Origin: Bacteroidales bacterium
GTDB lineage: Bacteria; Bacteroidota; Bacteroidia; Bacteroidales; VadinHA17
Reading direction: 5' to 3'
NCBI GenBank assembly: GCA_025454755.1
Contig: JALONV010000003.1
Coordinates: 3,158-67,157 of the forward strand
Length of the DNA stretch: 64,000 nt
The notes beneath the pieces were generated by a model. That model ran no database searches. It worked only from the letters and a program-made list of their open reading frames with translations, and was not told where the DNA came from. Each line of letters opens with the position of its first letter. Position 1 is the stretch's first letter. This document shows, in pieces, positions 11,377 to 36,956 of this stretch. The translations under genes were made by a program, and so were the position numbers.

Positions 11377-12561
11377 TTAAATATATTCAAACGTCACATT
11401 TTTCAGCCACTTCTCTTCCAGCAGCCTTGCAATTCGTTTTACAACAGTCCGTCTTATCTCCAGCTCGACGGGCAGGTTTGGATCCTGGTGGGCAATATTG
11501 ATCCTGGTACCTATAATGAAGTGGATCTCATCACTGTCCATGAGCATTTTGACGATCTTGTCAGCAGGACCTTTCCCAAGGCGCACACTATTATTATATG
11601 TCTTCAATATCTCATTCACCTTCTGAAGGGTCAGAATGCCCTCTGTAACCAGGTCGATACCTTCGAGGAAGCTTTCAGGCGGAAGCTCCGGATCTTCGAA
11701 GATAAGCTCGTCAACGATAGTCCTGTTCAGCTCCCTGGCAATAATGTCGGCAGTAGTACCTCCGCATAAGATCACTTTGCCTTCATAGCTTCTGACCTTT
11801 TCAGCCAGCTCCGTGTCCTTATCCTTTTCAAAGGGAGGACCGGTGCAGATCATCATCTTGCGGGGTTCGCGAAAGTAAATAATTGCGCAGCTTATATCGT
11901 CTTTTGCCTTGTACGCATCATACTTATGCGCCATGGTAACTATTTTACCGGCAAGCATGGATGCAGAAATTGATGCTTCACTCGAGACAAGCGCAGAGGC
12001 ATATGCTGCGATGTGGTCTCTTTCCCAGCCGAAAGGGAAGGATTCGCTTCCCATGCCGCTCTGAGCAACACCATCGGAGCAGAAAATTATCCTGTCTTCC
12101 TTCTCAGGCATAAATGTGCATGTTTTCAGGATCTTGCCTGAGTGTTTCCCTTTCTCCAGCACTACCTTTTTCCAGCCCGGATCAAATTCCTGTTTCCCCC
12201 TGAGGATTATAGCATGAGGATTGTCGTATTCCAGGATATTGGCCTTACCGCTGCTCTCAATATCGACGATCGTGAAGGTCGAGTAAGCTATTTTCCTTTC
12301 ACTGCACACAGGAAGGGTGTTCATTATTATTTCTGCAATACGGTCGACCTCTTTGTGCTCGCGGGCGAAATTCAGGGCCATGGTGGAGGTGAGGGTTGCC
12401 AGAATATTTGCTTTCACGCCATGCCCCATGCCATCGGAAAGAACTGCAATAACCCGGTCTTCTTCCTTTATATATTTATAAAGAAAGACGTCCCCGCATA
12501 TCCTTTCCTCATCATGGTTGCGCTGCTGACTGTTGACCTCTATATAGAAATCTTTGTTCAC
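11377..12561 (-). CDS. SpoIIE/PP2C Ser/Thr phosphatase, HfsC-like
   Basis: CGD, LSDGMGHG, STFTI, SDGV and DDIS metal-binding motifs. C-terminal CGGTTA/EGILTL domain as in hydrogenase-linked HfsC proteins. Overlaps the upstream sensory hydrogenase by 4 nt. Confidence 0.85.
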   Translation of the reverse strand: MNKDFYIEVNSQQRNHDEERICGDVFLYKYIKEEDRVIAVLSDGMGHGVKANILATLTSTMALNFAREHKEVDRIAEIIMNTLPVCSERKIAYSTFTIVDIESSGKANILEYDNPHAIILRGKQEFDPGWKKVVLEKGKHSGKILKTCTFMPEKEDRIIFCSDGVAQSGMGSESFPFGWERDHIAAYASALVSSEASISASMLAGKIVTMAHKYDAYKAKDDISCAIIYFREPRKMMICTGPPFEKDKDTELAEKVRSYEGKVILCGGTTADIIARELNRTIVDELIFEDPELPPESFLEGIDLVTEGILTLQKVNEILKTYNNSVRLGKGPADKIVKMLMDSDEIHFIIGTRINIAHQDPNLPVELEIRRTVVKRIARLLEEKWLKNVTFEYI

Positions 12562-14456
12562 TCCGTTTTTCCGGGCTTGTTATTTTGTTTGCTTATCTTT
12601 TTATAAGACTCAATGATTGAATTGAGCATCTGTTCTGTTTCAGATGCACCTTCACCCAGTAGGAATCCTATCTTCTGAACCATCTCCAGGTTTTTATCAA
12701 TTACCTCGCTGACCCGGTTGGTTACTTCTTCTCCCTGTACTTCAGGCGAATAGAGGTCACGTATAACAGCCCCGCACATTTTATTTTTCTTGATGGGGAA
12801 GATGGAAATGTTAAGCATCTTGTCCTCAAAATGAATATCCTTGCTGACAACAGGTTCATCCTCCTTGATTACAAAGGTGAACATGTTATAGACGTTAAAT
12901 GGAATGAGTGTCTTCAGGTCAGCTCCTGCAAGCCCCGGAATGACTTCAGAAATTGCGCGGGCATCTTCGCCGATAATATTTATGAAACTATGGTTTGAGT
13001 GAAGTATTCTCAGGTTATTGTCCACGATAACAACACCTGTTGGAAGCTTGTCGAGCATATTGTTCAGCATGTCGGAGGCACTTTGGGCCATGTCCTTTTC
13101 CCTGAGGGCCAGTTCCTCTGATTCTTTCAGGGCTTTCTTTGTTTCTGCCAGCTTCCTGTTTGTCTGTCTTAATGTTTCGATATATTCCTGTTTGTTCCGC
13201 AGGTTGAATGTATGACACATTTCAGGTACTGCCAGACCCTTGGCTACAGTCGATGCAAATTCGCGGCACGATAAATATCCGCATGCTCCGCAATTAAGCT
13301 CTTCCTCCGGATCATTCTTTCCGACTATTTTAAGCACTTCTTTTACAGCTTCTTCCGGAGGCTCAGGAATACGCTGGTCATTGGGATTGAAGGTCCTTGA
13401 GAAGTCTAGTTTCAGCCACTTATCCATGTTTTTCTGCCAGAGAACCTTATCGAGGGTGCTGATCCTTTTTTCGGTATAACGGCTGACAAGAGCCCTTCTC
13501 CTGAACATCTCCTTGTGATATTCCATGCCGGGCCCCAGCAAACAACCATGGCAGAAGAAAAGGTTGAAATGATGGTTGATGGTATCAATGAACTTGTCAA
13601 AATCATTTATTGCTTCAAGGATATCTTCCTTTCCGGATGCAGTTATTACCCTGCTCGAAACCATGTCGCGTTTGATGCCGCCTGCCTGGATAATACCTGC
13701 AGGAACAGGATAGAGAGCTCCCCAGTATCCGTATGGCGGATCGAAATCAGACATTTTTACATTCCTCTCCTGTATTTTGAATTCATCGAAAAGCTGACGA
13801 AGCTCTATGAAAGTCAGAACTCCGTCAATCAGCTTTCCCGATTCATACAGAAGAGCTTCATCCTTCGCATCGATGCATGGACCGATCTGAACAGTCGCGA
13901 TATCTTCGCCATATATCTTTTTGACAACCATGGCGGTGGCGATCATTGGCGACACCAGCGGAGCCAGGTTGGGAGTCATCTCTGGGTGGAATTTTTCAAT
14001 CAGCTTGACTATTGACGGGCAATTGGCTGTTATAAAATATTTGCCTTCGGCCTTGCTGAAAAGGTCGGCATATTTTGCGGCAATGAGGTCGACGCCAAAT
14101 GAGACCTCATGGACGCAATCAAAGCCCAGCTGTCGTACCATGGCTACAAACTTACGGTAGTCGGTAATGTCATCAAACTCCGACGCTATGGCAGGTTCGA
14201 TTAGTGCAACAGTTTTTTTCCCGGAGGCGAGCAATGTTTTAACTTCCTCCATTGAATCGCGGAATTCAATAGCGCGCGGGGAACAGTAGACATAACAGAG
14301 TCCGCAGCCGATACATCTTTCACTGAGAATTGTAGGGTGTTCTTTCTGAATTTTGACTTCTATGGCATTTACAGGGCATACCCTTACACACGAATATGAG
14401 TTTCTGCATCTGTCGTCATTAATGCGCAGAACAGGCTTAATGGTTTTCGCGCTCAT
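12558..14456 (-). CDS. Group C (sensory, HydS/HfsB-like) [FeFe]-hydrogenase-like protein with C-terminal FeS and PAS domains
   Basis: N-terminal ferredoxin motifs (CRNSYSCVRVCP, CIGCGLCYVYC). H-domain motifs TANCP, GPCIDAKDE and FCHGCLLGPG. NCGACGYLSC...C FeS domain, coiled coil, PAS-like LPTGVVIVD...N. Confidence 0.85.
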   Translation of the reverse strand: MSAKTIKPVLRINDDRCRNSYSCVRVCPVNAIEVKIQKEHPTILSERCIGCGLCYVYCSPRAIEFRDSMEEVKTLLASGKKTVALIEPAIASEFDDITDYRKFVAMVRQLGFDCVHEVSFGVDLIAAKYADLFSKAEGKYFITANCPSIVKLIEKFHPEMTPNLAPLVSPMIATAMVVKKIYGEDIATVQIGPCIDAKDEALLYESGKLIDGVLTFIELRQLFDEFKIQERNVKMSDFDPPYGYWGALYPVPAGIIQAGGIKRDMVSSRVITASGKEDILEAINDFDKFIDTINHHFNLFFCHGCLLGPGMEYHKEMFRRRALVSRYTEKRISTLDKVLWQKNMDKWLKLDFSRTFNPNDQRIPEPPEEAVKEVLKIVGKNDPEEELNCGACGYLSCREFASTVAKGLAVPEMCHTFNLRNKQEYIETLRQTNRKLAETKKALKESEELALREKDMAQSASDMLNNMLDKLPTGVVIVDNNLRILHSNHSFINIIGEDARAISEVIPGLAGADLKTLIPFNVYNMFTFVIKEDEPVVSKDIHFEDKMLNISIFPIKKNKMCGAVIRDLYSPEVQGEEVTNRVSEVIDKNLEMVQKIGFLLGEGASETEQMLNSIIESYKKISKQNNKPGKTE

Positions 14457-14472
14457 TCCTTATCCTCCCCGG

Positions 14473-14730
14473 TTATTTAAATTTATCCAACTCCTTTACA
14501 AGTATGCTCTCTATTGTGGCAGTTGTTACACCTTCGATGACATGCCCGTTTATTGTCAGGTTGGGGCCGTTGCTGCAATGGCCCATGCATCGTGCACCTT
14601 TGAACATAACTTTATCTTCAAGATGATTTTTTTTCAGATAATCTTTTATGAACATGACTACCTCCTTGTTGCCTCTTGAAAAACAAGAACTTCCGAGACA
14701 TATATACATTTCAGTGCCCTGTGCCATCAT
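14473..14730 (-). CDS. Thioredoxin-like [2Fe-2S] ferredoxin, HfsA-like
   Basis: ICLGSSCFSRG...CMGHCSNGP. First gene of the leftward operon. Confidence 0.85.
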   Translation of the reverse strand: MMAQGTEMYICLGSSCFSRGNKEVVMFIKDYLKKNHLEDKVMFKGARCMGHCSNGPNLTINGHVIEGVTTATIESILVKELDKFK

Positions 14731-14733
14731 TTA

Positions 14734-14751
14734 TTGTTTTTTTAAAAACAA
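14734..14751. promoter_or_regulatory. Putative Rex operator (TTGTTTT-N4-AAAACAA)
   Basis: Perfect 7-4-7 palindrome between the minus-strand -7 element and the hfsA-like start codon. Resembles the Rex consensus TTGT(G/T)AA-N4-TT(C/A)ACAA. Confidence 0.5.
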
Positions 14752-14756
14752 CAACA

Positions 14757-14764
14757 CAAAGTTA
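14757..14764 (-). promoter_or_regulatory. -7 promoter element (TAACTTTG) of the hfsABC-like operon
   Basis: Exact TAnnTTTG about 27 nt upstream of the start codon. Confidence 0.6.
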
Positions 14765-14951
14765 GTAATTATTTCACTGGGTTCGGGTTGTCACAGAGGC
14801 CTAAAAAACATGTAATTACTTGAATTTAGAAGTGGCAGAAAACATCCAACTACCACAATGAAATCCTGGATACATTTAAATAGATCCTTGTAAATGATTA
14901 TATATCAACATTATATGTATGATTTTCAATAAATTTTATTTTCTGATTTAA

Positions 14952-14986
14952 TTGTTATAAAAAAAACATTGTTATTTTAATAACAA
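14952..14986. promoter_or_regulatory. Tandem putative Rex operators (TTGTTAT-AAAA-AAAACAT at 14952-14969; perfect TTGTTAT-TTTA-ATAACAA at 14969-14986)
   Basis: 7-4-7 palindromes overlapping the expected -33 region of the rightward promoter. rex is encoded downstream on the same strand. Confidence 0.65.
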
Positions 14987-14994
14987 TAAATTCT

Positions 14995-15002
14995 TATATT
15001 TG
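14995..15002 (+). promoter_or_regulatory. -7 promoter element (TATATTTG) of the hydCBA-like operon
   Basis: Exact TAnnTTTG 20 nt upstream of ATG 15023. Confidence 0.6.
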
Positions 15003-15022
15003 CATATCGATTTAATGCCCTG

Positions 15023-15493
15023 ATGAGTAAAGATATAGAGGTTATTATAAAGAAATACAAGCCGGGGAGGAGAGAGGAACTGATTCCGCTTCTCCAGGAG
15101 ATACAGGATGAACAGGGACACCTGTCGGAAGAAGCAATTGTCAGGGTGGGAAATTTTGTGGGTCTGAGCACTACTAAAATATATGGGCTGGCGACATTTT
15201 ACGACCAGTTCAAATTTGTCCCGTCAGGGAAGGTCTGCATAAAGATATGCAACGGCACTTCATGTTTCCTGAACGGCTCACAGGCTGTGATGAACAAAAT
15301 CAGGGAAGAAACAGGTCTGCCTGCCGGTCAAACCAGCAGAGACGGCAGTTTCAGCTACGAAATCGTAACCTGCATGGGCGGCTGCAACAATGGCCCCGTA
15401 ATTAGTGTCAACGGAGAATATAACACATATGTAAAGCCTGAACAGCTTTCTGATCTTATCAGGAGGCTGAAGTTCATAATTGAGAATGACTAA
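15023..15493 (+). CDS. NuoE/HydC/HndA-like [2Fe-2S] subunit
   Basis: LIPLLQEIQ, ATFY, CNGTSC...CMGGC. Confidence 0.9.
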   Translation: MSKDIEVIIKKYKPGRREELIPLLQEIQDEQGHLSEEAIVRVGNFVGLSTTKIYGLATFYDQFKFVPSGKVCIKICNGTSCFLNGSQAVMNKIREETGLPAGQTSRDGSFSYEIVTCMGGCNNGPVISVNGEYNTYVKPEQLSDLIRRLKFIIEND

Positions 15494-17428
15494 ATGGAAG
15501 ACCTTAGGAAATTTCTGATTGACAAGGTTCTGCTGTTTGAATCGGACACTCTGCTTCCTGAAACTGAAAAAGTTCTCAGGAAAATAAAGAGGGAGAAGGC
15601 CGACAGCGCAGTCATTTCTGTTTCTTCAGGCACGGCTGGCATAATTGCGGGATCAGAAAGAACCTGCATTGCCATTAAGTCGTATATTGATGAAAATGAG
15701 CCCGGCACTGAACTTGTAAGGGTCGGATGCACCGCTCCCAACAATTTTGAACCATTTGTCTGCGTTCAGCTTCCCGGAAAGAATAAACTGTTTTTCAGGA
15801 ATATCACGGAGGAAAAAGTAGAACCGCTCCTGAATGGCATTTTTCATAACGACATAAACAAGGACGACCTGGCAGGTCAGCAGGGAACAAAAGGATTTGA
15901 GCTCTGGCCAGGAATACCATTTCTTGAGGAACTGCCGTTTTTTGCCAGGCAGAAAAGAGTGGTGCTTAACAATTGCGGCTGCTATGATCCCGAAAATATT
16001 GAAGAGTATATAGCCCGCGGGGGATACAGGTCTTTTGTAAAAGCTATACGCCATTATACTTACGAGGAAGTCTGCAGCATCATTGAAACCAGCGGTCTCA
16101 GAGGCAGGAGCGGAGGAGGCTATATTACCGGGCTGAAATGGAAACAGGCTCTGAACACAACATCAGCATCGCGCTACCTTATTTGCAACGCAAAGGAGAG
16201 CGATCCCGGAGCATTTACAGACAGAACCATGCTTGAAAGCGATCCTCACCGCCTGGTCGAAGGAATGGCGATCGCTTCATATGCTATCGGTGCTTCAACG
16301 GCTATTGTGTTCTTCAGAAGAGGATCTGATCATGCATTGAGAAGGCTTCAGGAAGCAATCGACAATGCACGGGAGTTTGGTATTCTGGGACACAATATTT
16401 TTTCGAGCGGTTATAATCTCGACATAATAATCAGGAAAGAGCCGGGTGCTTTTGTCTGCGGAGAAGAGACCGCCCTGATCAGTACCCTGGAAGGAAAACG
16501 CGGCATGCCACAGCTTAAGCCTCCATATCCTACTGCATCAGGACTATTTGGAAAACCAACGGTTATTAACAACGTTGAGACGCTGATGAATGTTCCCCTC
16601 ATTATGCAGAACGGCCCTGAATGGTTTCGTACAATGGGAACGGAAAATAGTCCCGGCACAAAAGTGTTTGCTGTCGCCGGAAAAGGCCGCATGTCGGGAG
16701 TGGTAGAAGTAGAGATGGGAACCACATTAAGATCGATTATTGAAGATATTGCCGACGGAATAAAGGAAGGGAAAGAACTTAAAGCGGTACAGCTCGGAGG
16801 CGCTGCAGGTTCTTTTATCACTTCCGGAAATCTGGAAGTGCCTGTTGATTATGATGTTATGAAGGAGAAGGGCATTGCCATGGGAGCAGGCGGCTTTATA
16901 ATAATCGACGAGACTACCTGTATAGTGGATATCGTCAGATATTATATGGAATTCATCCGTGGCGAGAGTTGTGGCAAATGCATCCCCTGCCGTGAAGGAA
17001 CCGGCCGTATGCTTGAGATCCTTGACAGTGTAATAAAAAAACCGGCCAGCGAAGACTCGGGTACAACCCTCGAACGGTTCAAAGGTGTAATGCAGCTTGA
17101 GACCATAGCCTCGGTGATGAAGGATACTTCACTCTGCGGACTTGGACAAACTGCTCCTAATCCTTTCCTGAGCGCGCTTGAAAATTTCAGGGAAGAATTT
17201 GAGGAGCATATCTTCGACCGTAGATGCAGGGCAAATGTGTGCAGAGGTCTGAGAACCTTTTCAATAGATGTTGATAAGTGCACCGGCTGTACAGCCTGCG
17301 CATCGAAATGCCCTGTGAATGCCATTTATGGCACAAGGCTTCAGCCTTTCTTCATTGTAGAGGAGAAATGCACAGGATGTGGAATATGCTATGATATTTG
17401 CAAGTTCAGCGCAATAAAGGTAAAATAA
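15494..17428 (+). CDS. NuoF/HydB/HndC-like flavoprotein subunit with divergent FMN/NAD motifs
   Basis: LRGRSGGG, CNAKESDPGAFTDR, FVCGEETAL, NNVET, SCGKCIPC..LCGLG, HIFDRRCRANVC, and a C-terminal 2x[4Fe-4S] domain. Confidence 0.88.
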   Translation: MEDLRKFLIDKVLLFESDTLLPETEKVLRKIKREKADSAVISVSSGTAGIIAGSERTCIAIKSYIDENEPGTELVRVGCTAPNNFEPFVCVQLPGKNKLFFRNITEEKVEPLLNGIFHNDINKDDLAGQQGTKGFELWPGIPFLEELPFFARQKRVVLNNCGCYDPENIEEYIARGGYRSFVKAIRHYTYEEVCSIIETSGLRGRSGGGYITGLKWKQALNTTSASRYLICNAKESDPGAFTDRTMLESDPHRLVEGMAIASYAIGASTAIVFFRRGSDHALRRLQEAIDNAREFGILGHNIFSSGYNLDIIIRKEPGAFVCGEETALISTLEGKRGMPQLKPPYPTASGLFGKPTVINNVETLMNVPLIMQNGPEWFRTMGTENSPGTKVFAVAGKGRMSGVVEVEMGTTLRSIIEDIADGIKEGKELKAVQLGGAAGSFITSGNLEVPVDYDVMKEKGIAMGAGGFIIIDETTCIVDIVRYYMEFIRGESCGKCIPCREGTGRMLEILDSVIKKPASEDSGTTLERFKGVMQLETIASVMKDTSLCGLGQTAPNPFLSALENFREEFEEHIFDRRCRANVCRGLRTFSIDVDKCTGCTACASKCPVNAIYGTRLQPFFIVEEKCTGCGICYDICKFSAIKVK

Positions 17429-17433
17429 TCGTT

Positions 17434-19155
17434 ATGCTTTTTACGATCCAGGTAAATAATAAAAAGATTAAGGCTGAAAAAGGAGAAACGATCCTTTCGG
17501 CACTAAACCGTAATGGCATAATAATTCCCACTCTCTGCCGCATGAAGGAATTCACTCCGACGGGAGCCTGCCGGATGTGCGTCGTGGAGGTTGAAGGCCG
17601 CGACAGGCTGGTAACCGCGTGCTCACAGCCTGTTGAGGAATGGATGAAGATCAAAACACATTCCCCCAGGGTGATTACCGCAAGAAAAACCATCGTGGAG
17701 CTCCTTCTTTCAAATCACCCCGACGATTGCCTTTATTGCGACAAAAACCTGAACTGTGAACTGCAGCGTCTTTCCGAAGAGCTTAATATCAGGGAAAGAC
17801 GTATGCGCGCAAAGAAAATCCGTCCCAGGCTCGACCAGTCAAGTCCAGCTATTGTCAGAGAACTTTCGAAGTGCATCCTCTGCGGAAGATGCGTCAGGGT
17901 TTGTGAGGAAATAATTACTTCAACATCACTTGATTTTTTAAATAAAGGAAGTCAGACACATGTCGGCCCTGCTATGGACCGCGACTTCAATTTTTCAAGC
18001 TGCATCCACTGCGGGCAGTGCGTTCTGGTTTGTCCGACAGGCGCACTTCATGAGAAACATAATATAAATGAGGTACAGGAATACCTTAACAATCCTGAAT
18101 TGCTGAAAGTTATACAGTATTCGCCTCTCGTAGCATCCGGTATAGCCGAAGAGCTCGGGATAAAATATAACAGGGAATTTGACAGGATACTGAATTCAAT
18201 CCTTCGTAAAATAGGTTTCGAAAAAATATTTACCACCGGTACCGGCACTGATATCTGCATCACTGAAGTTACCGCACAGCTGAAGGAAGAAATTGAAAGA
18301 AAGTCCAAGACACCGCTATATATTTCTGCATGTCCTGCCTGGGTAAAATATGCTGAGCAATTCATGCCTGAGATCCTTCCCCTGCTGTCAACGGTGAAAT
18401 CACCCCAGCAGATCACAGGTATCCTTATAAAGACGCTGGTGGCGGAGCAGGCAGATGTCAGGCCGGAGAAGATTTACTCGGTTTCTGCAACACCATGCAT
18501 GGCAATGAAGTTCGAAGCAAGGAGAGACGGCATGATGCGGAAGGGGATCAGCGATGTCGATTCAGTGATGACCGTCCGGGAACTGGCAAGATTGATAAGG
18601 CTCTATGGCATAGATGTAACAAACATCGAACCTGAACCTGTTGATGAACCGATGTCGGGACTGACTTCTGCGGCAGCCCTGGCAGAAGTTTCCGGAGGAC
18701 TTGCAGAAGCAGTGATAAGATCCCTGTGGTTCAGTATCAATAATAATGAAGCTGACAGGCAGTTATTCAAGAAATTGCGTTCTGGCGGATCATTCAGGGA
18801 AGCCTCCTTCAGAATAGGTGAAACAGAGATCAGCGTTGCAGTTGTCGATGGTCTTATTGGTCTTGAGAAACTGAAGAATTCACAGGCATCAGGAAAAAAA
18901 TATGATCTCGTGGAGGTGATGACCTGCCAGGGAGGATGCGTTAATGGAGCTGGACTTCCCTATAGCTCAGTTAAAGATGAAAAGAAAAGCAGGGCAAAAA
19001 TGATCTATCACGCTGACGAGACAGATGCACTTAACCTGCCATGTAAATCGCCGGTACTGTTGAACCTGTACGATAAACTTATTAAAGAGAATAAGGAGAT
19101 TGGAGACAGGAAGATATTTTTTACACATTTTGAGAAGAGGAATGTTCTTTTGTAG
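17434..19155 (+). CDS. HydA/HndD-like [FeFe]-hydrogenase homologue with degenerate H-cluster pocket
   Basis: Accessory clusters intact (IPTLC..GACRMC..TAC; HPDDCLYC..C; CILCGRCVRVC; CIHCGQCVLVCP). H-domain motifs are ISACPAW, TPCMAMKFE and EVMTCQGGCVNGAG. Confidence 0.85.
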   Translation: MLFTIQVNNKKIKAEKGETILSALNRNGIIIPTLCRMKEFTPTGACRMCVVEVEGRDRLVTACSQPVEEWMKIKTHSPRVITARKTIVELLLSNHPDDCLYCDKNLNCELQRLSEELNIRERRMRAKKIRPRLDQSSPAIVRELSKCILCGRCVRVCEEIITSTSLDFLNKGSQTHVGPAMDRDFNFSSCIHCGQCVLVCPTGALHEKHNINEVQEYLNNPELLKVIQYSPLVASGIAEELGIKYNREFDRILNSILRKIGFEKIFTTGTGTDICITEVTAQLKEEIERKSKTPLYISACPAWVKYAEQFMPEILPLLSTVKSPQQITGILIKTLVAEQADVRPEKIYSVSATPCMAMKFEARRDGMMRKGISDVDSVMTVRELARLIRLYGIDVTNIEPEPVDEPMSGLTSAAALAEVSGGLAEAVIRSLWFSINNNEADRQLFKKLRSGGSFREASFRIGETEISVAVVDGLIGLEKLKNSQASGKKYDLVEVMTCQGGCVNGAGLPYSSVKDEKKSRAKMIYHADETDALNLPCKSPVLLNLYDKLIKENKEIGDRKIFFTHFEKRNVLL

Positions 19156-19192
19156 GAAGATAAAAGACTCAAGAAACAAGTAATTTGCAACC

Positions 19193-19255
19193 GCTAGCGC
19201 GGATTTGCAATCCGTGCTGCCTACGTAAAGGCACAGATTATAAATCCGCGCCAGC
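19193..19255. repeat. REP-like inverted repeat (GCTAGCGCGGATTTGCAATCCGTGC / GCACAGATTATAAATCCGCGCCAGC)
   Basis: 25-bp arms, 21/25 complementary, 13-nt spacer. Each arm is itself a small palindrome. Confidence 0.85.
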
Positions 19256-19268
19256 AAAAGAAGAAAAA

Positions 19269-21230
19269 ATGCTCGTCTATACCATTAAAGAACTCTGCCG
19301 TACTTGCTACACCTGTGTCAGGGAGTGCCCTGCCAAGGCGATCCGTATTGTCGGCGGCCAGGCAGAGGTAATTACTGACCGGTGCATCGCCTGCGGGAAT
19401 TGTACTAAAGTGTGCAGTCAGGGTGCAAAAGTATTCCTGAATACCACCGACAGGGTGCTGAAGCTTCTGGGCGACCAGCCAAAAGTTGCTGCCATGATTG
19501 CACCTAGTTTTCCGGCAGAGTTTTCTGATATCCCTGATCACCGCATGCTTATTGGTATGATCAGATCAATTGGTTTTGAATATGTTACAGAAGTTTCATT
19601 CGGCGCCGATATTGTCGCTGACAAGTACAAAAAACTTGTAAATGAAAGCAATGAATATTATATTACTTCAGACTGTCCTTCAATAGTAAATTATATCAAG
19701 TATTATCACCCTGCCCTGGCCGACAGCCTTGCTCCGATTGTTTCACCGATGGTTGCCATGAGCAGGATTGTACATAAAAAATATGGTGAGGATACAAAGA
19801 TTGTCTTCATAGGTCCGTGTGTTGCAAAAAAAGCAGAAAGCAGTGAGATTGATGAAGCCATTACTTTCACCGAGCTAAGGGATCTTTTTGCCCAGCTTGG
19901 CATTTCTCCTGCAAACAGCACTCCTTCGGATTTTGATCCGCCGTTTGGCGGACGCGGCGCTATTTTTCCTGTAACGAGAGGATTGCTGCAGACCGCAAGT
20001 ATAAATGATGATGCCATAACCGGCAACATTATTGCTGCTGAAGGGAGGATAGGTTTCCAGGAAGCGCTGAAGGAATTTGAGGCAGGACTTATTAAAACCC
20101 AGCATGTAGAACTGCTCTGCTGCGAAGGATGCATTATGGGACCGGGTCTTTCAAAGAATGGAAAACAGTATAACAGGAGAGCCCTGGTGAGCAGTTATGC
20201 AAATAGGAAGATGAATGAGATTGACCAGAATGGATGGAAATCGGCATTCGATGAGTTTTCAGATCTCGACCTTTCTGTAAGGCATAAAGCAGAAGATCAC
20301 AGGCTTTTAATGCCTGATGAGGCAGATGTCACGGATGTCCTTATTTCGATGGGCAAAAAGACCAGGAAAGACCAGCTCGATTGCGGAGCATGCGGTTATG
20401 AGAGCTGTGTTGAACATGCCATAGCGATTAAAAAGGGATTGGCTGAAGTGGAGATGTGCCTTCCCTATACTATTGAGAAGCTTCACAAATCGGTTACTGA
20501 CCTCGCGCTTTCCAATGAGAAACTCAGCTCAATGAGGCAGGCGCTTAAGCAGTCTGAGAAACTTGCTCACATGGGTCAGCTGTCGGCAGGTATCGCTCAT
20601 GAACTCAATAATCCGCTGGGCGTTGTGATAATGTACAGCAATATTCTGCTTGATGAATGCAAACCTGACGATCCCGTACGGGAGGACTTAAAGCTGGTTG
20701 TGGAACAGGCCGGAAGGTGCAAGAAGATCGTGGCCGGACTTCTGAATTTTGCAAGGAAAAACCAGGTAAACCATCAGATGGTCAACATCGGTGAACTGAT
20801 CAGTCATAGCCTTGAAAGTATCATTGTACCGGCGAATGTAAAGGTCTCAGTTGTAAATAAAACTACCAATCCCGATGCAATGCTCGACTCAGAACAGATG
20901 ATGCAGGTTCTGACTAACCTTATCAAGAATGCCATCGATGCAATGCCGGGGGGAGGCGCTGTAAACATTCTCCTGGAAGATACGCTCAGCCATGTCAGCA
21001 TTACCGTTGGCGACACAGGTTCTGGTATCAGGGAAGAGAACAGATCAAAGGTTTTCGAACCATTCTTTACAACTAAAGGACTCGGCCATGGCACAGGCCT
21101 GGGACTTGCCACTGCCTACGGGATTGTGAAGATGCACAAGGGGCAGATAACTGTCGAATCCAACACCGATCCGGCAAAAGGGCCGACAGGTACAAGCTTT
21201 AAAATTGTATTACCAAGGAGGAAAGAATAA
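19269..21230 (+). CDS. Sensory [FeFe]-hydrogenase-like domain fused to a histidine kinase
   Basis: 2x[4Fe-4S] N-terminus; [27 protein letters not shown]; [10 protein letters not shown] FeS domain; His[11 protein letters not shown]; HATPase NAIDA, DTGSGI, FFTTK, GTGLGL. Start set at ATG 19269 because the upstream TTG extension is repeat DNA. Confidence 0.9.
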
Positions 21231-21626
21231 ATGAAGAAAAGCGATTATACGATACTTGTTGCCGATGATGACCCTGACTATCTCTTTCAGACTGTATTCA
21301 GTCTTGAGAAAGCAGGTTACAAGACTGTTGCTGTGGAGAGCCAGGCAGAAGCTGAATCGGTAATATCTAAATTCAGACCCGATCTTGCTATTTTTGACCT
21401 TATGATGGAGAGCGACGACAGCGGGTTCATTCTCTGCTATAAGATAAAGAAGAAATATCCGGATGTGCCGGTGATCCTTGCTACTGCAGTTTCAAGGGAG
21501 ACCGGAATGTCATTCAGTATCGATTCTGAAAAGGACAAATCGTGGATCAGAGCTGACAAATACCTTGAAAAAGGGATCAGGGCTGAACAGCTCGACCAGG
21601 AGGTTATGAAACTTTTAAAGATATGA
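21231..21626 (+). CDS. Single-domain response regulator (receiver)
   Basis: VADDD, FDLMM (phospho-Asp), LATA, LEK. No output domain. Confidence 0.88.
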   Translation: MKKSDYTILVADDDPDYLFQTVFSLEKAGYKTVAVESQAEAESVISKFRPDLAIFDLMMESDDSGFILCYKIKKKYPDVPVILATAVSRETGMSFSIDSEKDKSWIRADKYLEKGIRAEQLDQEVMKLLKI

Positions 21627-21627
21627 C

Positions 21628-22764
21628 ATGGCAGTCTTGAAAATACTTGTTATCGATGATGAACCCGGGATACGGTCGGGAGTGACACGTATCCTGAGAG
21701 ATTTTCATGTGACATATCCATTCATGGATGAGGATTATACTTTCGAAGTTCTTCAGGCTCCCACCGGTGAAGATGGAATAAGTATTATTGAAAACGACAA
21801 ACCCGACATTATTCTCCTCGACAACAAACTTCCGGGAATCCAGGGTGTGGATGTACTTGAGTATGTCCGCGAGAGAAAATACGACATTGTTGTCGCAATG
21901 ATCACATCCTATGCATCGCTTGACGTTGCCATTAGGGCAACACGTGACGGTGCAACCGATTTTATTCCCAAACCATTCACTCCACAGGAACTCAAGTCGA
22001 GCATTGAGAATATTTCCAAACAGCTATATCTCAGGAAGGTAACCGACAAGCTGAAGACGGAGGGAAAAAAGGTCAGATACCAGTTTCTGTCAGTCCTTTC
22101 TCATGAACTTAAAGCTCCTCTGAATGCTATCGAAGGTTATCTCAGAATGATGCAGGAGAAACAGGCCGGCGACAGGATAGATGATTATGCTGATCATATC
22201 GACAGGTCGCTTCAGCGGATACAGGGAATGAGGAACCTCATCATGGACCTGCTGGACTTTACCAAGATCAGGCTTGAAAGGAGGGAAGAAAAGATCCAGG
22301 AGGTTGATCTTGCCGAAGTGGCAAAAGGCGCAATTGTGACGGTTCAGCCTTATGCTATTCAGATGGACGTTACCATAAACCTGGATGTCAGAAGCGATTC
22401 GATGATCATGGCTGATCCGGAAGATATGGAGATCATCTTCAACAATCTGATCTCCAATGCAGTTAAATACAACAAGGTCGGGGGTAAGGCAGATATAACT
22501 ATCGACAGTACGGAAAGTGAAGTGCTGCTGGTCTTCACCGACACAGGCATAGGTATATCTGATGCTGACAGGGAGAATCTTTTCAAGGATTTCATGAGGG
22601 TGAAGAATGAAAGGACAAAAAATATATCAGGCAGCGGCCTGGGGTTGAGTATTGTGAGGAAAGTAATTGAACTGTATCATGGTACAGTAAAGGTTGACAG
22701 CAAACCTGACCTTGGAACCGTTTTTACTGTAAGATTGCCAAAGAAACCACCAACAATAACCTGA
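21628..22764 (+). CDS. Receiver-histidine kinase hybrid (no sensor domain)
   Basis: VIDDE, LLDNKLP and KPF receiver motifs; SHELKAPL; NAVKY, DTGIGI, GSGLGL. Confidence 0.9.
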   Translation: MAVLKILVIDDEPGIRSGVTRILRDFHVTYPFMDEDYTFEVLQAPTGEDGISIIENDKPDIILLDNKLPGIQGVDVLEYVRERKYDIVVAMITSYASLDVAIRATRDGATDFIPKPFTPQELKSSIENISKQLYLRKVTDKLKTEGKKVRYQFLSVLSHELKAPLNAIEGYLRMMQEKQAGDRIDDYADHIDRSLQRIQGMRNLIMDLLDFTKIRLERREEKIQEVDLAEVAKGAIVTVQPYAIQMDVTINLDVRSDSMIMADPEDMEIIFNNLISNAVKYNKVGGKADITIDSTESEVLLVFTDTGIGISDADRENLFKDFMRVKNERTKNISGSGLGLSIVRKVIELYHGTVKVDSKPDLGTVFTVRLPKKPPTIT

Positions 22765-22770
22765 TAAATT

Positions 22771-23394
22771 ATGAAACTGCCAGGAAAAACTGTAGAAAGA
22801 CTGAGTGAGTACAGAAGAACTCTTCTGGAATGTCTTCTCGAAAAGAAAAACTTCATTTTTTCACACGACCTTGCAGCCCGTCTGCATATTACGGCTGTCC
22901 AGGTAAGACGCGACCTGATGCTGATCGGCTATTCCTCGGTACAGCGCAAGGGCTATGATGTGAAAGAGCTCATTGAAAAAATAGGGACCATTATTGATTC
23001 TGAAGAGAGCCTTAATGTCGCCATAATCGGAATAGGGAACCTTGGAAGAGCTGTCGCAGGTTATTTCAAGGGAAAGAGATCCAAGCTTAATCTTGTTGCA
23101 TCATTCGATACAGATCCGCAAAAGATCAACAAGGTGGTATCCGGGGTAAAGTGTTATCACCATAACGAGATGGAACAGGTAATAAGAGACCTGAATATAA
23201 GGATAGCAATAATTACTGTTCCTCCAGACTATGCAAAGGAGATAGCCGAGGAGGCAGTCCGCTTCGGAATAAAAGGCATACTGAACTTTACCACGATCCC
23301 ACTCAATGTACCCTCATGGGTGTTCCTTGAAGAATATGACATGATCACTTCCATTGAAAAAGTAGCCTATTTTGTCAAGGAGAATACTATTTAG
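22771..23394 (+). CDS. rex: Redox-sensing transcriptional repressor Rex
   Basis: P.KTVERLSEY, QVRRDL, GY winged helix; GIGNLGRA Rossmann fold; GILNFT. Confidence 0.92.
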   Translation: MKLPGKTVERLSEYRRTLLECLLEKKNFIFSHDLAARLHITAVQVRRDLMLIGYSSVQRKGYDVKELIEKIGTIIDSEESLNVAIIGIGNLGRAVAGYFKGKRSKLNLVASFDTDPQKINKVVSGVKCYHHNEMEQVIRDLNIRIAIITVPPDYAKEIAEEAVRFGIKGILNFTTIPLNVPSWVFLEEYDMITSIEKVAYFVKENTI

Positions 23395-23399
23395 TGTTC

Positions 23400-24320
23400 A
23401 TGAATAACATGAAGATATTCAGGGGCTTTGAGCAGGCAAGAGGAATCAGGAATCCTGTGGTTACAACGGGTTCATTTGACGGTGTCCACATCGGGCATAA
23501 AACTATTCTGAACCGGCTTAAGCTCCTGGCAGAAAAGCACAACGGAGAATCTGTTCTGATAACTTTCGATCCCCATCCGCGGAAGGTGCTTTATCCCGAA
23601 ACTGCAGGCAAAAGCCTGAAACTTATCAATTCACAGGAGGAGAAACTCGAGCTTCTGAGAAAAGCCGGACTTGATAACCTGATCATAGTAGAATTTACCA
23701 GAGAATTCTCAAAAACCACTAGTGAAGAGTTTGTCAGAAATTATCTGCATGGCATCCTGAAGGCAAAGGTTGTGGTTGCAGGATTCAATCATCATTTTGG
23801 TTTCAATCAGGAAGGCGATTACAGGCAGTTGTGGGGGTGGCGGGAGAAGTACAACTTTGAAGCCGAAGAGATACCTGAACAGGAAGTACAGCACGAAACA
23901 GTAAGCTCTACCAATATCCGTAAGGCAATAAGCGAGGGTTATATTCAAAGAGCAAATGCGTATCTCGATCATTATTATATGATCATGGGTATTCCTGAAA
24001 AGCATGCTGTAATTTTTGATCTTCCTTTCCTTAAAATACCGCTGACAGAGGAATGCAAACTTCTGCCGGCAACCGGAATTTATGCAGTATCGGTAATCTC
24101 GGGCCAGGCAAATACAAAAGGGATGGTTGTCATCAATGAATCACATGAGAAGAAGCCGGAAATACTTCTGCATATTTTTGAAGAAGCAGATATGTTCCAG
24201 GGAAAAACTTCGACTATACTTTTCCATAAGATGATACATGGGTCAGTCTATCTGTCAGAAGCAAAGACGGCAGAGCGGATTATCAATGCAAAAAGCGAGA
24301 TAACGGATCTTATATACTGA
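23400..24320 (+). CDS. RibF-like FAD synthetase (FMN adenylyltransferase) with degenerate riboflavin-kinase domain
   Basis: GSFDGVHIGH, TFDPHP, GFNHHFG and VSSTNIR are intact. The C-terminal domain lacks GRxLGFPTAN and the catalytic E-x-H. Confidence 0.8.
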   Translation: MNNMKIFRGFEQARGIRNPVVTTGSFDGVHIGHKTILNRLKLLAEKHNGESVLITFDPHPRKVLYPETAGKSLKLINSQEEKLELLRKAGLDNLIIVEFTREFSKTTSEEFVRNYLHGILKAKVVVAGFNHHFGFNQEGDYRQLWGWREKYNFEAEEIPEQEVQHETVSSTNIRKAISEGYIQRANAYLDHYYMIMGIPEKHAVIFDLPFLKIPLTEECKLLPATGIYAVSVISGQANTKGMVVINESHEKKPEILLHIFEEADMFQGKTSTILFHKMIHGSVYLSEAKTAERIINAKSEITDLIY

Positions 24321-24352
24321 TAAGAATCATCTTCCGGCAGCCATCTTTTCAG

Positions 24353-24360
24353 TATCTTTG
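24353..24360 (+). promoter_or_regulatory. -7 promoter element (TATCTTTG) upstream of hydG
   Basis: Exact TAnnTTTG 24 nt before the ATG. Confidence 0.55.
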
Positions 24361-24384
24361 CAACCTGTTTAATATAAATATTTC

Positions 24385-25809
24385 ATGCGCTTTTCACCCG
24401 AAAAACTAAAGATCCCTGATCAGAGAATGAAACCATTCATTGATCCTGAAGAAATATGGGATCTAATAAATAATACCAAACCCGACAAGCAGAGGGTGAG
24501 AGAAGTGATTGCAAAATCTCTTGATAAAAACCGCCTTACACTTGAAGAAACTGCTGTGCTCGTGAATTCAATGGGGACCGGTCTTGAAGAAGAAATAAAA
24601 CAAGGAGCCAGGGAGCTTAAGGAAAAAGTATACGGAAACAGGATTGTTCTTTTTGCACCTCTTTATGTCGGTAACAGATGTACCAATAATTGCCAGTATT
24701 GCGGATTCAGGGCTTCCAACAAAGATGCTGTAAGGAAGACACTTACTGATGAGGAGATTATAAAGGAAGTTGAAGCCCTTGAGGATAACGGACAGAAGAG
24801 GCTGATCCTGGTTTATGGGGAGCATCCTGAGTATTCACCCGAATATATTGCGCATACTGTGAAGCTGGTGTATGGCATTAAAAAAGGACATGGTGAAATA
24901 AGGAGAGTTAACATAAATGCCGCACCTCTCACGATCGAAGGGTTCAGAACAGTTGGAGAGGCCGGCATCGGAACATACCAGGTATTCCAGGAAACCTATC
25001 ATCCGGAAGCATATAAATGGTATCACCCCAGCGGTAAAAAGAAGGATTACGAATGGAGAGTTACTGCGCTCGACAGAGCACAGGAGGCAGGTATTGATGA
25101 TGTTGGAATTGGCGCGCTCTTTGGTTTGTACGACTGGCGGTTTGAAGTTCTCGGACTGGTGCGGCACACAAATCATCTTGAAGCCTGCTATAACGTAGGG
25201 CCCCATACCATATCATTCCCGAGGATTAAAGATGCTCTCAGCCTCAATATAGACGGTACATACCAGACAAGTGATGATGAATTCAAAAAACTTGTGCCTA
25301 TTCTGAGACTGGCAGTCCCGTATACAGGGATGATACTGACTGCAAGGGAAGCGCCTGAAGTAAGGAAAGAAGTGATGCAGTATGGCGTATCACAAATAGA
25401 TGGCGGCACCAAGCTGGAGATTGGATCTTACTCAGATTCACAGAATGAGGTACAGAATCTCAATCGTGAACAGTTTAAAATTAATGACCCGCGTTCGCTT
25501 GCAGAAGTAATCGAGGAATTGCTTGTAAATGATTATATACCCTCATTTTGCACATCCTGCTACAGGATGGGAAGAACCGGTGAGCACTTCATGGAATTTT
25601 CGGTACCCGGATTCATCAAGCGTTTCTGTACACCCAATGCAATCCTTACCCTGTCGGAATATATATGCGATTATGCAACCGATAGCGTTGCTGAAAAGGG
25701 CTGGAAAGTGATCGAGAAGAACCTTAAAAAGCTCGAACCCGGGGTGGAACAGACAACACGAGAGAAAATAGAACGGATTAGAAATGGAGAAAGAGACCTC
25801 TATTTTTAA
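24385..25809 (+). CDS. hydG: [FeFe]-hydrogenase H-cluster radical SAM maturase HydG
   Basis: FAPLY, CTNNCQYC, FQETYH, GPHTISFPR, C-terminal FCTSCYR...FC auxiliary-cluster motif, GERDLYF end. Confidence 0.95.
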   Translation: MRFSPEKLKIPDQRMKPFIDPEEIWDLINNTKPDKQRVREVIAKSLDKNRLTLEETAVLVNSMGTGLEEEIKQGARELKEKVYGNRIVLFAPLYVGNRCTNNCQYCGFRASNKDAVRKTLTDEEIIKEVEALEDNGQKRLILVYGEHPEYSPEYIAHTVKLVYGIKKGHGEIRRVNINAAPLTIEGFRTVGEAGIGTYQVFQETYHPEAYKWYHPSGKKKDYEWRVTALDRAQEAGIDDVGIGALFGLYDWRFEVLGLVRHTNHLEACYNVGPHTISFPRIKDALSLNIDGTYQTSDDEFKKLVPILRLAVPYTGMILTAREAPEVRKEVMQYGVSQIDGGTKLEIGSYSDSQNEVQNLNREQFKINDPRSLAEVIEELLVNDYIPSFCTSCYRMGRTGEHFMEFSVPGFIKRFCTPNAILTLSEYICDYATDSVAEKGWKVIEKNLKKLEPGVEQTTREKIERIRNGERDLYF

Positions 25810-25915: not shown

Positions 25916-26440
25916 ATGATTAAAGTTTTAGGAATCAAGATTGTGGACAGAATAAAGGAAGCAGGACTTACTCAGGAAATCCTGTCCCGTCATTCGGGTG
26001 TTATAACGACCCGCCTTGGTTTTCATGAGGTTACAGAAAGCATCTGCAGCCGTGAAGCATATATTATACTTCATCTCAAAGATGATGAGGCAGAATCGGA
26101 TAAACTTAAAAAAGAGCTTGAACCACTGGGTGGAATAGAAATCAGGGAAATGGTCTTTTCAGGAAATGGAAAAAATGAGTATGTGAAGGAAAATGACGGC
26201 ATGATAGAGATCCTTGGCCTACTTCTTGAAAAGAGATACGAAGTGATACTTTCAGTTCAGAAACTTCTTACATCCTATGGCTGCTACATCCGCACGCGCC
26301 TGGGTGTAAATGAGACGTTCTTTGGCGAACCTGCAGGACTCATTATTCTTGAACTATGCGGCGATAAGGAACAGAGGGAACTCCTTGAAAAAGACCTTGT
26401 TGCACTGACAGGAGTCCATGTGAGGAAAATGATCTTCTGA
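25916..26440 (+). CDS. Tandem two-domain TM1266-like (iron-only hydrogenase system regulator, ACT-like) protein
   Basis: Two similar halves: VLGIKIVDR..QEILS.H...ITTRLG and ILGLLLEKR..VQKLLTSYGCYIRTRLG. Adjacent to hydG. Confidence 0.65.
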   Translation: MIKVLGIKIVDRIKEAGLTQEILSRHSGVITTRLGFHEVTESICSREAYIILHLKDDEAESDKLKKELEPLGGIEIREMVFSGNGKNEYVKENDGMIEILGLLLEKRYEVILSVQKLLTSYGCYIRTRLGVNETFFGEPAGLIILELCGDKEQRELLEKDLVALTGVHVRKMIF

Positions 26441-34324: not shown

Positions 34325-34326
34325 AA

Positions 34327-35649: not shown

Positions 35650-35660
35650 TTAAATGAAAT

Positions 35661-35885
35661 ATGGCAAAGATAAGAGGAAGTATAGTAGTTGAAATCGACA
35701 GATGCAAGGGGTGCGAGGTGTGCATGGTTTCCTGTCCGACAGGTACGATTGCTATGGCAAAGGAGGTAAACCACAAGGGTTACTTTTATGCTTATCCTGC
35801 TCATCCGGAACTGTGCATCGGGTGCGCAAACTGCGCAATGGTATGCCCGGATGGCGTAATAACTGTTTATAAAACAAAGATATAA
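35661..35885 (+). CDS. 2x[4Fe-4S] ferredoxin, delta subunit of 2-oxoacid:ferredoxin oxidoreductase
   Basis: CKGCEVCMVSCP and CIGCANCAMVCP. Confidence 0.9.
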   Translation: MAKIRGSIVVEIDRCKGCEVCMVSCPTGTIAMAKEVNHKGYFYAYPAHPELCIGCANCAMVCPDGVITVYKTKI

Positions 35886-36946: not shown

Positions 36947-36956
36947 GAGACGAGAT

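Follow-up and report, generated by a model that had tools for sequence, protein, structure and literature searches.

A predicted non-catalytic HydABC-like trimer keeps its Fe-S wire beside two hydrogenase-derived sensors in Bacteroidales

What is a HydABC-type trimer for when its hydrogen-making pocket appears to be gone, and why does it share a promoter region with hydrogenase-derived sensors? The question arises from one locus in the window, the whole 64,000-nucleotide stretch of DNA analysed here. Ten open reading frames (ORFs) were confirmed in the window sequence at the place and strand given by the initial annotation, in two divergent arms; the gap between them, described as a 290-bp promoter region, measures 292 bp (14731-15022). 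The left arm, on the reverse strand, keeps the hfsA-B-C order, with a thioredoxin-like [2Fe-2S] protein (HfsA-like, PF01257; 14473-14730), HydS' (ferredoxin domain, H-domain, FeS domain and PAS-like tail, matching Fe_hyd_lg_C and FeS domains; 12558-14456) and a PP2C/SpoIIE-type Ser/Thr phosphatase (HfsC-like, PF07228, E 2e-12; 11377-12561). On the forward strand, domain matches identify HydC' (a NuoE-like C1 [2Fe-2S] subunit; 15023-15493), HydB' (a NuoF-like FMN/NAD subunit with two extra Fer4 domains; 15494-17428), M3-type HydA' (17434-19155; the ORF opens with TTG at 17398, and the ATG at 17434 matches relatives), a hydrogenase-histidine kinase (H-domain, HisKA and HATPase; 19185-21230, likely start 19269), a single-domain receiver (PF00072; 21231-21626), a REC-HisKA-HATPase receiver-histidine kinase hybrid (21628-22764), the NADH/NAD+-sensing repressor Rex (22771-23394) and RibF' (FAD_syn; 23394-24320). 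Pfam and NCBIfam profiles agree with the identities first assigned, the PAS label aside: HydS' gave no Pfam PAS match at E<=1e-3, so that label rests on resemblance to HfsB/HydS.

The locus runs past the end originally noted, into hydG (24385-25809; TIGR03955, 503 bits against a cut-off of 312) and then a fused double TM1266-like (CPF_0552) gene on the same strand (25916-26440; NF052672 in two stretches, PF21699), with hydE nearby on the reverse strand (29038-30153; TIGR03956 above cut-off). These three genes had been overlooked, as had a tandem palindrome in the promoter and a motif loss in RibF'. Of the FAD synthetase label given to RibF', the FMN adenylyltransferase domain stands; bifunctionality does not, as the riboflavin-kinase motif present in a full RibF on contig C99 is absent, and the protein falls below all NCBIfam cut-offs. 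No DNA-binding response regulator was found at the locus, and a scan of the sequence for sigma-70 promoters and terminators gave chance-level matches only. Among 60 order-level loci, the receiver is present at 59, the receiver-kinase hybrid at 56 and hydG at 32, and the kinase follows hydA at 55; the receiver acid pocket is altered in two loci that have neither kinase. The Cys motifs of the HfsA-like protein are conserved across 32 rows, and its gene was not found at several of the compared loci. The acidic motif residues of PP2C are invariant (35/35), and PP2C adjoins HydS' in 9/9 unlinked copies retrieved.

The erosion of HydA' is selective. We scored 11 pocket and proton-path residues in CpI numbering, and 9 of them are changed in the window protein, including C299A, E279V, K358M and G418E. 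P1 reads ISACP instead of TSC[CS]P and aligns with the C299A variant structure 6GLY; P2 reads TPCMAMKFE instead of MPCxxKK, with Met353 and Lys358 gone (M353T, K358M); the third motif is EVMTCQGGC, and the proton path E279/S319/E282/R286 reads V/S/Q/E. This state is fixed in 74 close relatives (K358M 74/74, G418E 73/74, C299 and E279 0/74, all four H-cluster Cys 74/74), upholding the earlier view that the HydABC partner is degenerate. All 20 Fe-S ligands (A1-A4 and [4Fe-4S]H) are kept in the window and in 56/56 clade members. Canonical relatives keep E279, F417, G418, C299 and K358 in 22/22 (G418 in 20/22) and 16/16. An AF2 model of HydA' (pLDDT 85.8, pTM 0.87) has T. kivui HydA as its best Foldseek match (TM 0.75). 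By alignment, then, the pocket and proton path are lost and the Fe-S wire is intact. In CpI, the variants C299A/S and E279A/Q have <1% activity and E282Q has 8% (PMC6226526), and eroded HydABC' likely no longer produces H2. Sensory TmHydS is active although it carries Ala at C299 (PMC10055695, PMC6226526). The ADLTIMEE string is not kept exactly in the active HydA of T. maritima either, which makes T275 a weak marker. The ligands may be retained for folding; however, C499 is kept in only 26/37 HydS', so the fold does not impose the invariance of that ligand in HydA'. Clade-wide retention (n=56) is graded (E279 in 5, F417 in 13, G418 in 22, C299 in 30, K358 in 33), and the clade members L145, L148, L149, L161 and L164 retain 8-9 of the 11 residues, including C299, M353 and K358. 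Because of this partial retention, such members, or the five with E279, may still turn over H2.

HydC' keeps its C1 motifs and ligands. In HydB', the B1-B4 ligands, B2 His included, are kept in 48/48, and the FMN/NAD residues E235, E324 and E325 are invariant. The B5 [2Fe-2S] site has lost two Cys in the window family, its first three positions being kept in 33-39/48 of the clade. Of the Losey 2020 bifurcation residues, the window protein has A/E232 (as A) and F367; M234T and GGPSG to GGAAG depart from the set, and these changes together with the B5 loss weaken the case for a ferredoxin leg. NADEG has become xxES clade-wide (S in 47/48 eroded versus G in 29/29 canonical). This site coincides with the redox-gated E95-S96 peptide flip of NuoF; since S96 is not conserved, according to the paper describing the flip, we treat the coincidence as a hint only.

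Eroded HydABC' forms one clade (SH-aLRT 99 for HydA with motif columns removed, 97 for HydB) that branches from within the canonical kinase-linked HydABC and has members in 27 Bacteroidales families; the locus is syntenic across the order. Canonical motifs occur in 38/38 syntenic relatives outside the clade, so the eroded state is derived. Lineage-specific decay had been raised as a possible outcome; the relatives are indeed canonical, but the age and breadth of the clade, its invariant ligands and low dN/dS rule out local decay. Purifying selection is borne out by intact frames, a dN of 0.14 with synonymous sites near saturation, and a dN/dS of 0.036 in the sole unsaturated pair, the ratio being mostly unmeasurable, as each gene or part of a gene offers 0-4 unsaturated pairs. 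The candidate explanation that the genome has no catalytic hydrogenase is ruled out by two canonical HydA elsewhere, on contigs C66 and C47. The genome also encodes HydG, HydE and HydF (the last split over two contig ends) and five H-domains only, none following PP2C, that is, no catalytic hfsD. Across 70 genomes, a separate canonical HydBAC accompanies 47/48 eroded versus 0/22 canonical-locus genomes, and HydS'-PP2C 48/48 versus 0/22, counts that all descend from one origin and amount to one event.

The two sensors differ from each other. All three H-domain proteins lack the full TSCCP and MPCxxK set, as first described, with TANCP / GPCIDAKDE / FFCHGC in HydS' and TSDCP / GPCVAKKAE / LLCCEGC in the kinase. 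Equal degeneracy of the three, and degeneracy of the kinase in particular, did not hold up: the kinase retains four H-domain Cys and the K358-equivalent Lys, as known group C sensors do, and a fused HisKA/HATPase with its phospho-His. K358 is among the residues that hold the 2Fe subcluster. Its equivalent is present in 65/66 kinases (40/41 eroded, 19/19 canonical, 6/6 distant) and in 0/37 HydS'; from this difference, HydS' probably cannot sense H2 itself and the kinase probably can. In canonical and eroded loci alike, the kinase resembles an intact group C1 H2 sensor, a label assigned by domains. In a tree with only two ordinary HfsB-like rows, the sensor part of HydS' groups as sister to that of the Bacteroidales kinase (SH-aLRT 99), and the two are 39% identical over 467 aa.

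Transcriptional wiring is suggested by the tandem 18-bp palindrome (14952-14986; core TGTTA-N6-TAACA), a predicted Rex operator that often comes as two copies at 17-bp spacing and is conserved in 70 aligned intergenic regions. A TATATTTG box just downstream, at 14995, is presumably the Bacteroidetes -7 consensus. The palindrome occurs at 44/46 loci with rex versus 4/30 without, and the window holds 7 matches against 1.74 expected. Local Rex has HTH and Rossmann domains above the curated cut-off (NF003995, 199 bits against 126), with a second paralogue on C47. The genome contains 32 perfect palindromes, about a dozen inside genes; the predicted operator precedes hydC', the canonical hydBAC (in tandem), the C47 hydCBA, PFOR, nqrA and rex itself. 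In other genomes, counts over the whole sequence clearly exceed the reversed control in only 2-3/10. These placements suggest a regulon of Bacteroidales hydrogenases, PFOR and Na-NQR.

We propose, at somewhat better than even likelihood, that HydC'B'A' is a former bifurcating hydrogenase whose retained wire acts as a non-catalytic relay from NADH, and probably ferredoxin, to H2-blind HydS', which would control PP2C, while the intact kinase senses H2 in parallel. The sequences show an eroded pocket with a kept wire, and comparison shows that eroded HydABC' comes with a separate canonical HydBAC and with HydS'-PP2C. NADH would then reduce the HydB' FMN, and electrons would equilibrate along B1, the A-chain and [4Fe-4S]H and along B2-B3-B4. 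The ferredoxin/H domain of HydS', a putative copy of the kinase sensor module, would dock on HydABC', and the FeS cluster in the linker of HydS' would switch the PAS-like tail and PP2C. Until NADH/NAD+ rises, Rex would act through the palindrome to repress the HydABC' operon and those of the catalytic hydrogenases. As a tentative extension, which we think rather unlikely, HydABC' might serve as a thermodynamic gauge: with its H2 outlet blocked, the A-chain would fill only if NADH is present together with reduced ferredoxin and would sit at the mean of their potentials, which is what drives H2 evolution. HydS'-PP2C would read this gauge and the kinase real H2, and the cell would compare both to decide if fermentative H2 release can run.

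The best-surviving alternative to the relay, which we nonetheless find unlikely, is that HydA' retains an atypical H-cluster as a slow H2 sensor resembling groups C/D, reset by HydBC' through NAD+/ferredoxin. C299A and M353T are similar to substitutions of sensory enzymes (PMC10055695, PMC8163306), M497, S323, Q325 and E361 are retained, K358 survives in the 33 clade members counted above and hydG is often in the operon. Yet the replacements differ by lineage (C299 to D/A/S/N/V/I, K358 to R/M/A/G/Q, F417 to many) and resemble drift more than a new site, the window family combines K358M with G418E, and the adjacent real sensor keeps K358 almost invariably. Ranked next, and doubtful, is that HydABC' plays no part in signalling and works in metabolism, as a diaphorase or Bfu electron module that exchanges NADH and ferredoxin or supplies electrons to an unlinked enzyme or to the H-cluster of the kinase. 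The invariant flavin-site residues and B1-B4 ligands fit this idea, as do Bfu cores that serve many third enzymes (PMC9304861) and the placement of HydABC' in a redox regulon by the Rex-like operator. However, the 60 loci share no conserved gene for a catalytic partner, the constant companions of HydABC' are signalling proteins, and free ferredoxin-to-NAD+ exchange would presumably waste energy.

We consider it very unlikely that the main role of HydABC' is to feed or reset the co-transcribed kinase, with the phosphatase arm a separate opposing branch, as the initial annotation emphasized. The hydCBA-HK-RR-RRHK block is the oldest part of the locus, shared with canonical loci and with another class, and the kinase usually follows hydA. 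But no kinase H-domain was found in 5 eroded genomes (completeness 95-100%) that keep HydABC' and HydS', so that the constant companion is HydS'-PP2C; kinase motifs are unchanged where HydABC is eroded, and comparison of eroded with canonical loci gave no clade-diagnostic column in HK, RR or RRHK. Slow decay of a redundant paralogue held by linkage to needed downstream genes would suit the coincidence of erosion with a replacement HydBAC and the canonical outgroups, but it is already largely refuted, and most improbable, given intact frames and invariant ligands in 27 families, a dN/dS of about 0.04 and the fixed G-to-S change in HydB.

The relay reading departs from known systems in several respects. 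The system was put forward as a candidate for an undescribed one, but its gene order is already in print (Zheng and Huang 2024, PMC11406978) as group A3/sub-type V BfuABC with two bfuT, where C-B-A is followed by a His-kinase hydrogenase; this match is by published gene order. Perlabentimonas gracilis, Tenuifilum thalassicum and Williamwhitmania taraxaci carry a second bfuT upstream, its meaning called 'unclear' (PMC11406978). There the trimer is treated as a bifurcating hydrogenase, and the portions of text and supplement examined mention neither pocket erosion nor a Rex operator, nor any tie to a replacement HydBAC. Our literature search, thin on subscription papers, found no published report of a catalytically eroded Bacteroidales HydABC. 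The left arm resembles group C3 hfsABCD of Thermoanaerobacterium saccharolyticum and HydS of Thermotoga maritima in its 2Fe-2S protein, H-domain sensor with PAS-like tail and Ser/Thr phosphatase; a regulatory role of the hfsABCD type was shown by deletion (PMC5707799). Unlike these systems, it lacks catalytic HfsD, HydS' lacks the K358 Lys in 37/37 and sometimes an H-cluster Cys, and the sensor part groups with the local kinase and not with ordinary HfsB-like proteins. The kinase shares ferredoxin, H-domain, FeS, HisKA and HATPase domains, a non-canonical P1 and intact ligands with group C1 His-kinase-linked hydrogenases, and we found no difference in the protein itself; it differs in its setting, beside an operon partner eroded at the catalytic site and with no DNA-binding regulator linked to it. 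NARF/Nar1-like proteins and the HydA of A. mobile NiFe-HydABCSL are likewise hydrogenase-derived with no H2 chemistry at that domain (PMC8924675, PMC9304861), whereas HydA' is a full M3 subunit in a trimer, nests in group A3 and has no separate catalytic subunit encoded with it. As in Rex regulons, an 18-bp palindrome precedes hydrogenase, PFOR, NQR and rex genes, but its predicted core and frequent tandem arrangement differ from the Rex consensus TTGTGAA-N4-TTCACAA quoted in PMC5317091.

Protein searches brought up no cultured species by name, and HydA'-type proteins carry the database names '[FeFe] hydrogenase, group A' or 'HndD'; surveys might therefore count non-catalytic HydABC' as H2-producing capacity, and genomes with such annotation are perhaps miscounted. 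Group C sensors continue to be described as putative (PMC8924675). The locus offers a cloneable set comprising a pseudo-enzyme trimer together with a pair of homologous sensor domains, one probably H2-competent and one probably not, and two outputs, with genomes lacking the kinase as natural knock-outs. It bears on the means by which fermenters sense redox poise and back-pressure from H2; if the gauge reading were true, dozens of families of uncultured anaerobic Bacteroidales would possess a sensor built on electron bifurcation.

All ten ORFs of the initial annotation lie where it placed them, and the divergent promoter region it described, put at 290 bp, measures 292 bp. Pfam and NCBIfam profiles support its gene identities: on the left arm (- strand) a PP2C phosphatase (11377-12561), a protein combining an H-domain and an FeS linker (HydS', 12558-14456) and a thioredoxin-like 2Fe-2S protein, and on the + strand the NuoE-like, NuoF-like and HydA-like genes of the HydC'B'A' trimer (15023-19155), an H-domain histidine kinase (19185-21230), a receiver, a receiver-kinase, Rex (22771-23394) and a FAD synthetase (RibF', 23394-24320). 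HydS' had been called PAS hydrogenase-like; the H-domain was recovered, but the profile search gave no PAS family match, so that the PAS label reflects resemblance only. The + strand run continues past the FAD synthetase with hydG (above the NCBIfam cut-off) and a double TM1266-like gene, and hydE lies 2.6 kb beyond on the opposite strand. The nearest relatives are Bacteroidales MAGs; the window's own genome, at 97.8% completeness, has a size of 2.93 Mb. RibF' keeps its adenylyltransferase motifs and carries a long additional conserved patch, and the kinase motif is missing in 37 aligned relatives; it is a putative FAD-synthesis-only or regulatory paralogue linked to the HydABC' operon. Elsewhere in the window, an ADP-forming acetate-CoA ligase-like gene and a VorB-type 2-oxoacid:ferredoxin oxidoreductase cluster (32249-38313) lie close to the hydrogenase genes, fitting amino-acid fermentation, and a second protein with a PP2C domain, SiaA-like and 1104 aa in total, is encoded upstream of the locus (3941-7255).

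An alignment of HydA' with CpI and with HydABC subunits of solved structure was numbered from the C299A variant 6GLY; the other residue numbers are counted from this anchor or taken as those of CpI. No ligand is lost among the 16 of the accessory Fe-S clusters or the four [4Fe-4S]H cysteines, and nine of 11 scored positions are changed (A230S, T275C, E279V, E282Q, C299A, M353T, K358M, F417A and G418E). Lysine 358 holds a cyanide of the 2Fe subcluster. Among 74 full-length close relatives (from 80 loci), the four cysteines are invariant, K358M is universal, G418E occurs in 73, and neither C299 nor E279 is found. The AlphaFold model is confident (pLDDT 85.8, pTM 0.87), with T. kivui HydA as its top PDB match (TM 0.75). 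CpI activity reportedly falls below 1% in C299A/S and E279A/Q and to 8% in E282Q (PMC6226526, available text). A canonical hydrogenase, sought elsewhere in this genome, was found twice: contig C66 carries a canonical trimer in the order B-A-C (HydBAC) and contig C47 one in the order C-B-A with a short B, giving five H-domains in all, three at the locus and one per trimer. A small thioredoxin-fold gene before hydBAC (G000:C66:39243-39620; L216:3244-3621) lacks Cys at the [2Fe-2S] HydD positions and had no NCBIfam match at 1e-20. HydF is divided between two contig ends (G000:C59:7-471 and C102:16320-17071), the C102 part in two frames with an internal stop, reflecting either an assembly break or a frameshift.

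In an order-level search (E<=1e-125), which counts canonical and eroded copies together, 157 of 401 genomes matched; 70 were examined, a non-random choice that followed the score ranking and favoured long contigs. Synteny proved conserved: of 60 long loci, every one has hydC-B-A, 59 have the receiver, 56 the receiver-kinase and 55 the kinase; HydA is canonical in 17 and eroded in 43. Syntenic HydA from another class of the phylum is canonical in 16/16. Quick trees with SH-aLRT support and no bootstrap place the eroded HydA on a single branch (48/48, SH-aLRT 99; motif columns removed, 8 near-duplicate eroded rows left out), and likewise their HydB partners (48/48, SH-aLRT 97). All 20 Fe-S ligands persist in 56/56 members of the eroded clade, where pocket retention falls to 5/56 for E279, 13/56 for F417, 22/56 for G418, 30/56 for C299, 33/56 for K358 and 34/56 for M353, with several different substitutes at each position; canonical relatives keep these six in 22/22, except G418 (20/22). 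To judge by these residues, pocket constraint in the clade is relaxed and wire constraint complete. A few members, however, retain 8-9 of the 11 scored positions and could be slow enzymes, which speaks against a clade-wide loss. In the other class, another trimer, whose HydB is short as in the C47 type, often comes immediately after the canonical hydCBA-HK-RR-RRHK block (L200-L207), and at two canonical loci (L174, L210) the hydrogenase sensor domain of the post-hydA kinase is exchanged for a different input domain.

Canonical BAC-type HydA (at least 73% identity to the C66 copy) is present in 47/48 eroded-clade genomes, which span 27 families, versus 0/22 canonical genomes; HydS' is present in 48/48 (38 at the locus, 10 elsewhere) versus 0/22, and PP2C adjoins it in all nine unlinked copies retrieved. 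Because all co-occurrences with eroded HydABC' descend from a single origin, they represent one event and no statistical series. Two loci (L191, L194) lack both kinases and have an altered acid pocket in their single receiver; HydABC' is retained, with HydS'-PP2C in the genome. At five others (L151, L155, L197, L198, L265) the PP2C gene adjoins the end of canonical hydBAC, and catalytic, sensory and eroded modules can thus form one super-cluster.

The two sensor domains differ. The kinase keeps the four H-cluster ligands and K358 (40/41 eroded, 19/19 canonical, 6/6 distant). Of 37 HydS' sequences, by contrast, none has K358 and 26 have C499. A thinly sampled tree pairs HydS' with the Bacteroidales kinase as sister groups (SH-aLRT 99), away from the kinases of the other class and from two HfsB-like proteins of the ordinary kind. 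The first ferredoxin cluster of HydS' reads CRNSYSC instead of the usual CxxCxxC, as in several other families, possibly denoting a Ser ligand or a 3Fe-4S cluster.

A tandem palindrome (14952-14986; core TGTTA-N6-TAACA) resembles the consensus quoted for Rex regulons in the available text of PMC5317091, and is a putative Rex site. With at most one mismatch it lies upstream of hydC at 44/46 loci with rex versus 4/30 without, contig ends cutting three of those four; in three canonical genomes with this Rex elsewhere, a perfect site lies ~90 bp or less upstream of Rex. The window's genome has 32 perfect sites versus 0-5 with other spacers, including a tandem before canonical hydBAC and single sites ahead of the C47 trimer, PFOR, nqrA, serC and leuD. 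About 12, across about a dozen contigs, fall within coding sequences and may be bound by a different protein or have no tie to transcription control. Across 10 other genomes, no consistent excess over a reversed control was seen. A second Rex on C47 has a near-canonical TGTGAA-N4-TTCACA site at its gene start and is followed by NiFe-hydrogenase maturation-like genes (HypF/D/E-like by eye; G000:C47:19376 and 19378-24604 for the whole).

We propose, with slightly more confidence than doubt, that an ancestral catalytic HydABC worked with an H2-sensing kinase, passed its catalytic duty to HydBAC, probably in that order, and was retained as an electron relay read out by HydS'-PP2C. HydS' would carry a copy of the kinase sensor module; without a 2Fe site it would not react with H2 and would require an electron source, for which HydABC' is the candidate donor, presumably by docking. 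PP2C would be the output, acting on putative targets; the kinase-RR-RR-HK chain would report H2, and Rex would gate transcription according to NADH/NAD+. That HydA' is instead a slow H2 sensor seems improbable, as does a metabolic diaphorase role for HydABC'.

HydB' keeps its B1-B4 ligands, including the B2 histidine, in 48/48 eroded copies, and the FMN/NAD glutamates are retained. The Gly of NADEGDPG, present in 29/29 canonical copies and four solved Bfu subunits compared, is Ser in 47/48; the position corresponds to the NuoF E95-S96 peptide, whose flip depends on whether N1a is oxidised or reduced, S96 itself not being conserved (PMC6560083, in part). The window's family has lost two B5 cysteines, M234 and GGPSG, all variable across the eroded clade; M234 and GGPSG are described as bifurcation markers (PMC7311640, available text). 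A relay chiefly serving the kinase is quite unlikely, and the kinase H-domain was not found in five eroded genomes (95-100% complete) that retain HydABC' and HydS'. Decay is very unlikely: relatives of HydA' differ from it by dN ~0.14 with synonymous sites almost saturated, and the sole unsaturated pair indicates purifying selection (dN/dS = 0.036; neighbour genes similar).

Several related systems have been described, here cited from partial texts. Sub-type V BfuABC with the kinase bfuT is defined in PMC11406978, Bfu cores are shared by many enzymes (PMC9304861), hfsB deletion has regulatory effects (PMC5707799), and sensory HydS enzymes have altered C299, M353 and M497 with 2Fe-holding residues kept (PMC10055695, PMC8163306). 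The locus had been put forward as a candidate for an undescribed system. Its gene layout has been noted once, in three species of Bacteroidota that carry another bfuT upstream, the meaning of which was 'unclear' (PMC11406978, whose figures may show more); of eroded HydABC in Bacteroidales we found no account in the literature searched, a scope leaving out most subscription papers, and the erosion itself seems unreported. The eroded locus is a real, old and widespread variant made of known parts, in which, by a conversion that is apparently unreported, a bifurcating hydrogenase would have become a conserved pseudo-enzyme coupled to a sensor blind to H2.
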